Virus record (IMG/VR): IMGVR_UViG_2529292920_000008
From: a virus
Taxonomy: Duplodnaviria; Heunggongvirae; Uroviricota; Caudoviricetes
Reading direction: 5' to 3' (one strand)
Length of the DNA stretch: 18,300 bases
The position numbers were made by a program, and so were the translations under genes. A model generated the notes under the pieces. That model was not told the DNA's origin. It saw only the letters and a list, made by a program, of their open reading frames with translations, and made no database searches. Positions 8,298 through 10,924 of the stretch are shown piece by piece. Each line of letters opens with the position of its first letter. Position 1 is the stretch's first letter.

Positions 8298-8428
8298 ACA
8301 AAGCATTCGAACGATATATGCGCCAGCGTTATGGCAATCGCTACGATCTTACCCGCGATGCTTACGGCTTCTACTGTCGTGAGGTTGTGAAACGAATGTT
8401 TGAAGTGTGGTGTCATTGCAAAGGATAG
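8294..8428 (+). CDS. small hypothetical protein (44 aa), translationally coupled to rusA, in the position of DLP12 ylcG
   Basis: ATG 8294 overlaps the rusA stop (ATGA). Product MNKAFERYMRQRYGNRYDLTRDAYGFYCREVVKRMFEVWCHCKG; stop TAG at 8426-8428. Below the ORF-track length cutoff. Confidence 0.45.
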   Translation: MNKAFERYMRQRYGNRYDLTRDAYGFYCREVVKRMFEVWCHCKG

Positions 8429-8439
8429 AGGGGAAGACG

Positions 8440-9063
8440 ATGAGACTCGAAAGCGTAGCTAAATTTCATTCGCCAAAAAGCCCGATGATGAGCGACTCAC
8501 CACGGGCCACGGCTTCTGACTCTCTTTCCGGTACTGATGTGATGGCTGCTATGGGGATGGCGCAATCACAAGCCGGATTCGGAATGGCTGCATTCTGCGG
8601 TAAGCACGAACTCAGCCAGAACGACAAACAAAAGGCTATCAACTATCTGATGCAATTTGCACACAAGGTATCGGGGAAATACCGTGGCGTGGCAAAGCTT
8701 GAAGGAAATACTAAGGCAAAGGTACTGCAAGTGCTCGCAACATTCGCTTATGCGGATTATTGCCGTAGTGCCGCGACGCCGGGCGCAAGATGCAGAGATT
8801 GCCACGGTACAGGCCGTGCGGTTGATATAGCCAAAACAGAGCAGTGGGGGATAGTTGCTGAGAAAGAGTGCGGAAGATGTAAAGGCGTCGGTTATTCAAG
8901 AATGCCAGCAAGCGCCGCATATCGCGCTGTGACGATGCTAATCCCAAACCTTACCCAACCCACCTGGTCACGCACTGTTAAGCCGCTGTATGACGCTCTG
9001 GTTGTGCAATGCCACAAGGAAGAGTCAATCGCAGACAACATTTTGAATGCGATCACACGTTAG
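8440..9063 (+). CDS. Q: late gene antiterminator Q (lambda type)
   Basis: 207 aa from MRLESVAKFHSPKSPMMSDSPRATASD..., near-identical to lambda Q as recalled. The ORF-track start at 8407 is an upstream extension. Confidence 0.95.
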   Translation: MRLESVAKFHSPKSPMMSDSPRATASDSLSGTDVMAAMGMAQSQAGFGMAAFCGKHELSQNDKQKAINYLMQFAHKVSGKYRGVAKLEGNTKAKVLQVLATFAYADYCRSAATPGARCRDCHGTGRAVDIAKTEQWGIVAEKECGRCKGVGYSRMPASAAYRAVTMLIPNLTQPTWSRTVKPLYDALVVQCHKEESIADNILNAITR

Positions 9064-9099
9064 CGCCATGATTGCCACGGATGGCAACATATTAACGGC

Positions 9100-9160
9100 A
9101 TAATATTGACTTTTTGAATAACTTTGGGGAAACTTGACACCAATAATGGGCGTTTTTTAC
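9100..9160 (+). promoter_or_regulatory. late promoter PR' with qut-like region (lambda-like)
   Basis: ATTGACTTTTTGAATAACTTTGGGGAAACTTGACACCAATAATGGGCG closely parallels the lambda PR'/qut sequence as recalled. -35 TTGACT at 9107-9112, 17-bp spacer, -10-like GAAACT. Confidence 0.5.
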
Positions 9161-9300
9161 ATGTCATTGATGAGTCTCAATAACCTGCCGCCGAGTAGTT
9201 TTTATGCTCTGAATTGTATTTGTGTAGTAAACATGCTGACTGCAATGTAATAGAGTTTTTTTAGCCTGTAACCTCTTGACGGCATTGAATTGCTTTTGTT

Positions 9301-10059
9301 ATGAGTTGTAAGCCAATGTTATCATCTTGTATTGGGGTGGTTATGAAGGATGGTGCACTGCTCAGGAGTTCTTCACTTTTTATTGCCTACATGGGATGCC
9401 TTGGATGGGGGAGTGCTTATTTCTATGGATGGGGTACTTCTTTTTACTACGGCTTCCCATGGTGGATTGTAGGTGCAGGTGTTGATGATGTTGCCAGAAG
9501 TTTATTTTTTGCAGTTATCGTCATTGCTATATTTCTTATCGGTTGGGGTATTGGTGTTGTATTCTTTTTCGCAGTGAAAAGAAAACATTCTATGCAAGAG
9601 CTAAATGTATTTCGCCTTTATTTTGCTGTGGAATTATTGTTTGTGCCGGCAATTATTGAGTTTTCTATATTGAGACAGAAGATTCAGGTACCTCTTTTGC
9701 TACTGTCAGCAGCGATTGCGCTGGCGGTTACAATTTCGATAAGATCTTATGGGCGATTTTTATCGGTATCATGCTTCTATGATAAGCCATTTATAAAAAA
9801 ACATTTTTTTGAGATTGTGATGATTGCTTTTGTGGCATATTTTGGGCTTTTTTCATTTCTGACAGGATATTACAAACCACAGTTTAAGAAAGAATATGAA
9901 ATGATTAATTATAATGATGGTTGGTATTATGTTCTTGCTCGTTATGATAATTGTCTGGTTTTGTCTACTTCTTTCAATGCAGGTAGTAAAAGGTTTGTCA
10001 TTTATCAATCAGCACAAGATAAGAATCTTCAGGTTGATATTGTAAGGACCAGAATTTAA
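9301..10059 (+). CDS. hypothetical multi-pass inner-membrane protein; moron between PR' and the lysis cassette
   Basis: 252-aa ORF (alternative start ATG 9343 behind GGGGTGG) with about 5 hydrophobic helices (e.g. LFFAVIVIAIFLIGWGIGVVFFFAV) and a ~50-aa hydrophilic C-terminal tail. AT-rich relative to flanking genes. No family recognised. Confidence 0.6.
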   Translation: MSCKPMLSSCIGVVMKDGALLRSSSLFIAYMGCLGWGSAYFYGWGTSFYYGFPWWIVGAGVDDVARSLFFAVIVIAIFLIGWGIGVVFFFAVKRKHSMQELNVFRLYFAVELLFVPAIIEFSILRQKIQVPLLLLSAAIALAVTISIRSYGRFLSVSCFYDKPFIKKHFFEIVMIAFVAYFGLFSFLTGYYKPQFKKEYEMINYNDGWYYVLARYDNCLVLSTSFNAGSKRFVIYQSAQDKNLQVDIVRTRI

Positions 10060-10489
10060 TTGGCTGCATAAATAATATTTTAAGTTGCAAGTTGGCTATT
10101 CGTAGGAATAGAACCTTAGGCATGCTGAATGCGTTTTCTGAACATTGTTTTATAAACTGTGTCTGCTTGCTGTTGTGATCCTGCTTTTAGTGATGGTGAT
10201 GATGGATTTCACCAGCAGGATAATGTTGGTACTGACTGATGGCGCTCTGGTCTGCGGCATTGTGGTATTGCTGTGGCCGATGATGAAAGAACAGAATGAA
10301 TAATCCTTGACTTTTTTGTTTACTGTTTATTAAAAAATCAACCGCATGGTGAATCCTCCTTGGAGGGGCTAAATGATCGAGTTTTAAGGGCACGTAGCGA
10401 GTTCTGTTTGATCATTGCAGAACTTAGCGGGAGGCGCCATGCGTACATCACTAATGTTATTTCCTTCTATCATTTTCCTTGTGAGTTCT

Positions 10490-10516
10490 GGCTGCGCATG
10501 GCGCGGCCTTTTTTTT
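10490..10516 (+). terminator. intrinsic terminator, plus strand (tR'-like candidate)
   Basis: 8-bp stem GGCTGCGC/GCGCGGCC (one G-U pair), 3-nt loop, followed by eight T residues. Confidence 0.6.
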
Positions 10517-10692
10517 ATGACCTGCCACTGGCAGATGGTCATCCTGTGATTTGATTCCGGTTCCGGCTTTTTAACTCTGTTCCTGTACACGGGAGAAATT
10601 CTATGTCGATTAATCGTTATGATATTGGTTACAAGAAGTACCACGTATTGTGTTGAGATAGAAAGCATGGTGCCAGAGGTAAATGCAGCAGC

Positions 10693-10745
10693 ATAATAAA
10701 AAAGAGCCAGCGCAGAAGAGAACGGGTAAAAGAGTCTGCGCTGGC
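10693..10745 (-). terminator. intrinsic terminator, minus strand
   Basis: Perfect 11-bp inverted repeat GCCAGCGCAGA / TCTGCGCTGGC (10706-10716 with 10735-10745), 18-nt loop, followed on the minus strand by CUCUUUUUUAUUAU. Confidence 0.45.
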
Positions 10746-10861
10746 GTGGGGATATTCCCCGTGGAGAAATGATATGTAACACACATCGGGAACCTTTCTA
10801 TATAAACATTATCATTATTGTCAATCATAACAGTCAGGTATTATGACGTTTATGCATCAGG

Positions 10862-10893
10862 GCCATCAGGAATTAACTGGTGGCTTTTTATTG
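10862..10893 (+). terminator. intrinsic terminator, plus strand, just upstream of the holin gene
   Basis: 8-bp stem GCCATCAG/CTGGTGGC (one G-U pair), 7-nt loop, then TTTTTATTG. Confidence 0.5.
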
Positions 10894-10924
10894 TTGTCAG
10901 CTTCCGGATAACGGGAGACGGAGT

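Follow-up and report, generated by a model that had tools for sequence, protein, structure and literature searches.

The overall picture, which we consider probable, is that the analyzed window (18,300 nucleotides of a Caudoviricetes record, IMGVR_UViG_2529292920_000008) encodes the known Hfq-binding RNA PasD1 of the PasD/STnc100 family, with its own terminator and with the motif TTGACTTTTTTG as the -35 region of its promoter, and that no duplication of the late promoter PR' is involved. The gene pasD1, its ends, and its family are already published, hence, the present finding is a rediscovery of a known sRNA gene.

Position of pasD1 in the late-control region

Positions 9000-10900 of the window are 99.8% identical to Escherichia coli O127:H6 E2348/69 (NC_011601, 1058916-1060816, prophage PP4) and match 1378 of 5426 complete E. 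coli genomes; four substitutions relative to E2348/69 are seen across 1.9 kb around pasD1, none of them inside the sRNA. By this comparison, the window is a late-control region of a lambdoid prophage, essentially identical to PP4 of EPEC E2348/69. The order on the + strand is Q, PR', decayed tR', membrane-protein moron, DUF3927, the pasD1 promoter and gene, (an Esr41-like sRNA on the - strand), holin, lysozyme, and Rz. The features considered here are the following:

8407-9063, + strand, antiterminator gene Q of the lambda/P22 type (Pfam PF03589, Antiterm, E = 1.2e-57; PGAP start at 8440)
9106-9150, + strand, late promoter PR' and qut region (read from the sequence; aligns with annotated lambda and P22-type qut/PR')
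9182-9205, + strand, decayed remnant of the ancestral tR', AACCTGCCGCCGAGTAG followed by TTTTT (by homology to the phage 434 terminator)
9316-10059, + strand, membrane-protein moron gene, AT-rich (36% GC), an annotated CDS in E2348/69, 434, and 2B8
10145-10303, + strand, small DUF3927 ("TciB-like") membrane-protein gene (Pfam PF13064, E = 3.4e-14)
10307-10336, + strand, putative sigma-70 promoter of pasD1 (function presumed from its geometry relative to the published 5' end)
10344-10516, + strand, pasD1, 173-nt Hfq-associated sRNA, divergent STnc100 family member (by identity to published PasD1)
10480-10485, + strand, published seed UGUGAG, just upstream of the terminator (position mapped here)
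10490-10516, + strand, intrinsic terminator of pasD1 (8-bp stem with seven G-C pairs, then T8; hairpin -15.2 kcal/mol)
10696-10801, - strand, Esr41-like sRNA, EcOnc32 homologue, convergent with PasD1 (5' end approximate)

The moron gene shows no Pfam match. It is transcribed in E2348/69 lysogens (RNA-seq baseMean 147), while Q (6) and the holin gene (5) are silent; a promoter-like TTGTTA-18-TATCAT with an upstream TG is seen at 9296-9325.

Identity of PasD1

The window at positions 10344-10516 is identical in 173 of 173 nucleotides to PasD1 of EPEC E2348/69 (NC_011601, 1060260-1060432). PasD1 is listed in Table S6 of Pearl Mizrahi et al. (2021, PMC8550237) as a 173-nt RNA on the + strand at 1060260-1060432, found by RIL-seq and validated by northern blot; the probe used there, CATGCGCAGCCAGAACTCACAAGG, maps to window positions 10477-10500. 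A discrete Hfq-associated RNA of ~173 nt is published for the identical sequence by northern, RNA-seq, and RIL-seq (PMC8550237). The sequence-only reading of this DNA had proposed a stretch of ~180 nt ending at the strong terminator at 10490-10516, which is right in substance, and a short transcript of it, which exists: it runs from ~10344 to 10516 and is PasD1, a transcript that does begin near 10340.

The seed UGUGAG of PasD1 is complementary to the CUCACA motif of the RIL-seq targets (Fig. S5 and target tables, PMC8550237). The same study names EcOnc13 of Tree et al. (2014) as the EHEC homologue of PasD1, and reports a twin, PasD2, whose RIL-seq reads begin at its first base; PasD1 and PasD2 differ by four substitutions and one indel. 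Both PasD1 and PasD2 of E2348/69 share the context seen in the window (Q, membrane-protein gene, DUF3927, sRNA, holin), the terminator, and the seed, and the window RNA has no differences from PasD1. The predicted fold of PasD1 (MFE -56.9 kcal/mol, z -2.07) consists of a long-range helix between the 5' and middle regions and the terminator hairpin.

Relation to the STnc100 family

The Rfam scan at the gathering threshold yields no match, and the permissive E-value mode gave STnc100 and Esr41. The STnc100 model (RF02076) matches in full at 10314-10519 with 37.7 bits (E = 3.7e-6), under the gathering score of 47. STnc100 is a prophage sRNA of Salmonella and E. coli, and in Stx2 phages it is found 75 nt downstream of stx2B. 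The PasD and STnc100 RNAs are described as related in a recent preprint (Zhu, Shabalina & Storz, 10.64898/2026.05.13.724894), which places pasD in phage 2B8, exactly where the window match falls. Judging from the model match and the alignment, PasD1 is a divergent STnc100 relative, as the preprint also concludes.

STnc100 resembles PasD1 in the 5' domain (GCAUGGUGAAUCC, the first hairpin, the GGGAGGC element, the closing helix, and the GUUCxG...CxGAAC hairpin with compensatory changes) and in the position at the moron site; it differs in the central region and in the 3' seed/terminator module. Most STnc100 copies have another upstream region (class B) without TTGACTTTTTTG. The alignment of 28 distinct family sequences shows a conserved 5' domain and a 3' seed/terminator module that is swapped between subfamilies, in agreement with the preprint; RNAalifold predicts 21 pairs for this alignment, two of them with compensatory changes, in one hairpin, which agrees with a shared structure but is weak evidence for it.

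The STnc100/PasD RNAs are modular: their conserved 5' domain occurs with no fewer than two 3' seed/terminator modules that are unrelated to each other (CCCCTCTC..GGAGGGG; GGCTGCGCATGGCGCGGCC). In Evi-type copies, a PasD-type terminator accompanies the canonical STnc100 5' domain (L003, phage Evi, 3130-3375; L034, 5390-5624).

Putative promoter of pasD1

The motif TTGACTTTTTTG at 10307-10318 is most likely the -35 region of the pasD1 promoter and not a leftover copy of PR'. It begins 4 nt after the DUF3927 stop codon (10301-10303). The putative promoter comprises TTGACT at 10307-10312, an 18-bp T-rich spacer, TAAAAA at 10331-10336, and 7 nt leading to +1 at G10344, which falls within sigma-70 geometry (spacing of 16-19 bp, 5-9 nt to the mapped 5' end). 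The -35 hexamer agrees with TTGACA in five of six positions (six of six with T tolerated), and the -10 hexamer in four of six; weak points are the suboptimal 18-bp spacer and a -10 element without the conserved T at -7. The arrangement TTGA(C/T)T-18-TAAAAA recurs without exception among the PasD-type and Evi-type (DUF3927-linked) copies. A simple consensus promoter scan did not call the pasD1 promoter, and PR' itself was also missed, hence, the scan could not decide the promoter question. The STnc100 promoters of Salmonella LT2 reportedly give an RpoD ChIP-exo signal; no description of the pasD1 promoter was found in Pearl Mizrahi et al. (2021) or in the Zhu, Shabalina & Storz 2026 preprint.

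Coverage in RNA-seq and RIL-seq, and not a 5'-triphosphate-specific method, is the source of the 5' end at 10344; we infer that this end is a primary start driven by TTGACT-18-TAAAAA. With this promoter, sigma-70 would initiate at the G of GCAUGGUGAAUCC (10344), and the PasD1 transcript would carry the seed UGUGAG (10480-10485) and stop at its own intrinsic terminator (10490-10516). An autonomous pasD1 promoter is, in our estimate, probable.

It is unlikely that PasD1 is derived from the 3' end of a longer RNA, that is, that a transcript from PR' (past the decayed tR') or from a moron promoter runs to 10516 and is cleaved at 10343/10344, with TTGACT having no function. Such processing would be consistent with the lack of a functional terminator between PR' and 10490, with moron transcription in lysogens (147, vs 6 for Q and 5 for holin), with the weak -10 element, and with an end at 10344 that is known from coverage and only by inference primary. 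However, abundance rises ~60-fold at the sRNA: the E2348/69 RNA-seq baseMean values are 6 for Q, 147 for the membrane-protein gene, 8652 for pasD1, and 5 for holin. PasD2 in PP2 is as abundant (11017), though it lies behind a largely intact tR'-type terminator. The 5' G sits 7 nt past the -10-like hexamer, which in turn has a perfect TTGACT 18 bp upstream; and the RNA begins with a purine, at a C|G junction that is unlike a typical site of RNase E, which reportedly (Chao et al., 2017) prefers AU-rich sequence with U at +2. Initiation at the pasD1 promoter remains the preferred reading.

A point against the promoter comes from class-B STnc100 copies: the EcOnc13 northern probe of Tree et al. 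(2014) maps to -40 to -6 of a class-B family member, and the RNA of this branch may start further upstream than the PasD1-like +1, by which the promoter argument across the family is weakened. The recurrence of TTGYCT-18-TAAAAR in class-B copies was considered as independent promoter support and down-weighted, because the probe lies upstream of that -10.

Comparison with the late promoter PR'

The 3' end of Q and the PR' region are 91-93% identical to the annotated Q/qut of P22-like, HK97, and HK022 phages, and the PR' homology to lambda/P22-type, HK97, and HK022 phages stops at ~9143-9150. PR' is formed by the -35 hexamer TTGACT (9106-9111), a 17-bp spacer, and the -10 hexamer GAAACT (9129-9134), with +1 at ~9141-9142; downstream of +1 there is the -10-like AATAAT (9142-9147), followed by GGG. 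Compared with lambda and P22, the -10 hexamer in the 9129-9150 region is weaker (GAAACT vs TAAATT), and the initial transcribed -10-like pause element is nearer to consensus (AATAAT vs AACGAT); phage 2B8 has the same -10 and pause-element sequence as the window.

TTGACT occurs at just two + strand sites of the window, 9106 and 10307. The sequence-only reading had placed the second motif, TTGACTTTTTTG, correctly at 10307-10318, and the first one at 9107, one base off: TTGACTTTTTG occupies 9106-9116. It explained the pair by insertion of the moron into an ancestral PR'-tR' (6S-like) unit, such that a partial duplicate of PR' at 10307 may still drive an RNA to the old tR' at 10490-10516. Points in common are indeed seen. 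The two motifs share the 10-mer TTGACTTTTT with ATAAT just upstream; the 173-nt RNA is close in size to lambda 6S; and the PasD1 terminator is the first strong one past PR' in this prophage. The promoter-to-terminator spacing, given as the same as in the lambda 6S RNA unit, agrees with it roughly but is not the same, 173 nt vs 194 nt.

Nevertheless, alignment reveals no similarity of PR' and the second motif past the short motif itself. The best local alignment of the two regions, on which MAFFT and Smith-Waterman agree, is ATAAT-(1-2 nt)-TTGACTTTTT with the score 22, which is reached or exceeded in 2.1% of shuffles and in 24 of 910 windows drawn from the same sequence; for a longer PR' segment against the second-motif region the shuffle fraction is 0.108. 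The exact 10-mer is, by these figures, mildly unlikely by chance (~2%) and no evidence of homology. No similarity is seen between the unit at 10295-10520 and the PR'-tR' (6S RNA) unit of lambda (shuffle fraction 0.79), and with the short PR'-tR' of the P22-like phage Emek it shares just the same 10-mer (0.12). No Q-binding-element-like GAATAA...TTGGG is found between the second-motif hexamers. Homology expected of a PR' duplicate, through the spacer with the Q-binding element, the -10, and the initial transcribed pause region, is absent, and ATAAT..TTGACTTTTT alone aligns. The resemblance to PR' is best read as two near-consensus -35 hexamers, each with a T run after it, with no duplication.

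The comparison with relatives points in the same direction. For this, 120 IMG/VR loci were chosen by their conserved 5' box GCATGGTGAATCCNCC, and the sequences upstream of it were compared. All sRNA copies that follow a DUF3927 gene carry the motif TTGA(C/T)TTTTTT, the DUF3927 stop codon lying 43-48 nt before +1. The module with this motif is found behind the lambda/P22-type Q, the Q82-like Q (434; PP2 of E2348/69), the Evi-type Q, and at least one other; among these, the TTGACTTTTTGAATA-type PR' is seen only in the lambda/P22-type Q context, while PR' of 434 is TTGCAA-17-TATACT. In these loci, the motif is thus tied to the DUF3927-sRNA (PasD/STnc100) module, and not to the Q type or to PR'. 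Relatives lacking the membrane-protein gene, proposed as a comparison for the split unit, speak counter to it: in locus L034, PR' and the tR' hairpin are both intact, and ~650 bp past them come DUF3927, then TTGATTTTTTTG, then the sRNA. In the window, the ancestral tR' sits separately at 9182-9205, upstream of the moron, hence, the moron was not inserted between PR' and the terminator at 10490-10516. With no wider alignment, with the motif behind unrelated Q and PR' types, and with tR' upstream of the moron, the insertion scenario is unsupported and already largely refuted; we regard it as highly improbable.

At the level of organization, lambda 6S RNA, StxS of Stx phages, and PasD1 are alike: all are short constitutive RNAs from the same strand as Q, downstream of Q, ending at an intrinsic terminator that Q-modified polymerase must pass. 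Compared to lambda PR'-tR', PasD1 shows no sequence homology and lacks both a Q-binding element and a -10-like pause element in register; unlike the 6S unit, it lies away from Q and has its own conserved promoter context after DUF3927.

Overlapping reading frames and the convergent sRNA

That the frames 10360-10554 or 10439-10549 encode a small membrane- or lipoprotein-like peptide, the motif being a protein-gene promoter, is hardly credible: the ATG at 10439 has GGAGG 6 nt ahead of it, the encoded peptide (MRTSLMLFPSIIFLVSSGC...) looks like a signal peptide, the phage 434 record annotates a "putative membrane protein" CDS here, and ribosome footprints are seen on some STnc100 copies in EDL933, but the stop codon (10547-10549) is past the terminator, such that the 173-nt RNA contains no stop in this frame, conservation of the frame is lost in the Evi homologue through indels and a shift of frame across the terminator, and GGGAGGC belongs to the conserved family RNA hairpin CCGGGAGGCACCCGG. 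The ORF 10439-10549 and the CDS annotated in 434 were rejected on account of the unconserved frame and the stop past the terminator. A 132-aa antisense ORF at 10384-10782 (- strand; E2348C_1013, a RefSeq "hypothetical protein") was also rejected; it has no credible Pfam match, and its reads are those of the Esr41-like sRNA, which in E2348/69 are booked under E2348C_1013 by mis-annotation. The ORFs 10384-10782 (- strand) and 10360-10554 (+ strand), which overlap both sRNA genes and the terminator, look like annotation artefacts.

The Esr41-like sRNA is matched by the Rfam Esr41 model at 10696-10785 on the - strand (32.3 bits, E = 1e-3), and it contains a match to the northern probe used for EcOnc32 by Tree et al. 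RIL-seq chimeras are seen at 1060613-1060654 (window 10697-10738), ending at window 10697, and its abundance (baseMean 2064) depends on Hfq, with a log2FC of -2.9 upon hfq deletion; a promoter-like CTGACT-18-GATAAT is present at 10837-10808 (- strand). Its assignment to PasA or PasC was tested, and it is neither. Tree et al. (2014) described convergent sRNAs at the moron site 3' of PR' in EHEC prophages (AsxR, AgvB, EcOnc13, EcOnc27, EcOnc32; also Esr41). The window shares this layout: PasD1 (the reported EcOnc13 homologue, + strand) and an Esr41/EcOnc32-like sRNA (- strand) converge in the interval from the moron CDS to the lysis genes. The latter sRNA is Esr41-like and distinct from the anti-sRNAs AsxR and AgvB of 51-60 nt.

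Decay of tR' and its possible consequences

The window segment 9182-9205 is the homologue of the annotated, intact terminator of phage 434, AACCCGCTGCCGAGTGGGTTTTTTTT. The 434 hairpin folds with -13.3 kcal/mol (z -2.8), and the window segment with -5.1 kcal/mol (z 0.0). The right arm of the hairpin is gone, GTGGGTTTT having become GTAG-TTTTT, and the decayed form is present in all eight loci with the PR' type of the window. Due to the loss of the right arm, PR' is left without a nearby terminator in this lineage. No strong intrinsic terminator comparable to 10490-10516 is found between 9141 and 10490, hence, the pasD1 terminator is the first barrier for PR' transcripts here. A separate change is seen in PP2 of E2348/69 (L125, ~2470-2500), where a G-to-T substitution is present in the 434-type terminator ahead of the PasD2 cassette (GTGGTTTTTTTTT), and the predicted hairpin is thereby weakened from about -14 to about -8 kcal/mol.

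A possible consequence, to which we give a rather low probability, concerns the lineage that combines a P22/lambda-type Q with the 434-type moron cassette: with tR' decayed, the pasD1 terminator would now be the first effective one after the constitutive PR', PR' would drive moron gene expression in lysogens, and both the output of PasD1 and its termination would be linked to the antitermination switch by Q.

Raw sequence correctly predicted a real and abundant sRNA, whose interaction partners in EPEC include virulence-gene mRNAs (LEE, bfp). The additions made here are modest: an explicit model of the pasD1 promoter, the assignment of the motif to the DUF3927-sRNA module and not to PR', and the decay of tR'. 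The latter, upstream of the moron, could alter the wiring of the moron and the sRNA to the late switch of the phage; if the coupling to Q is true, induction would lead to read-through and promoter occlusion, and less PasD1 would be made.
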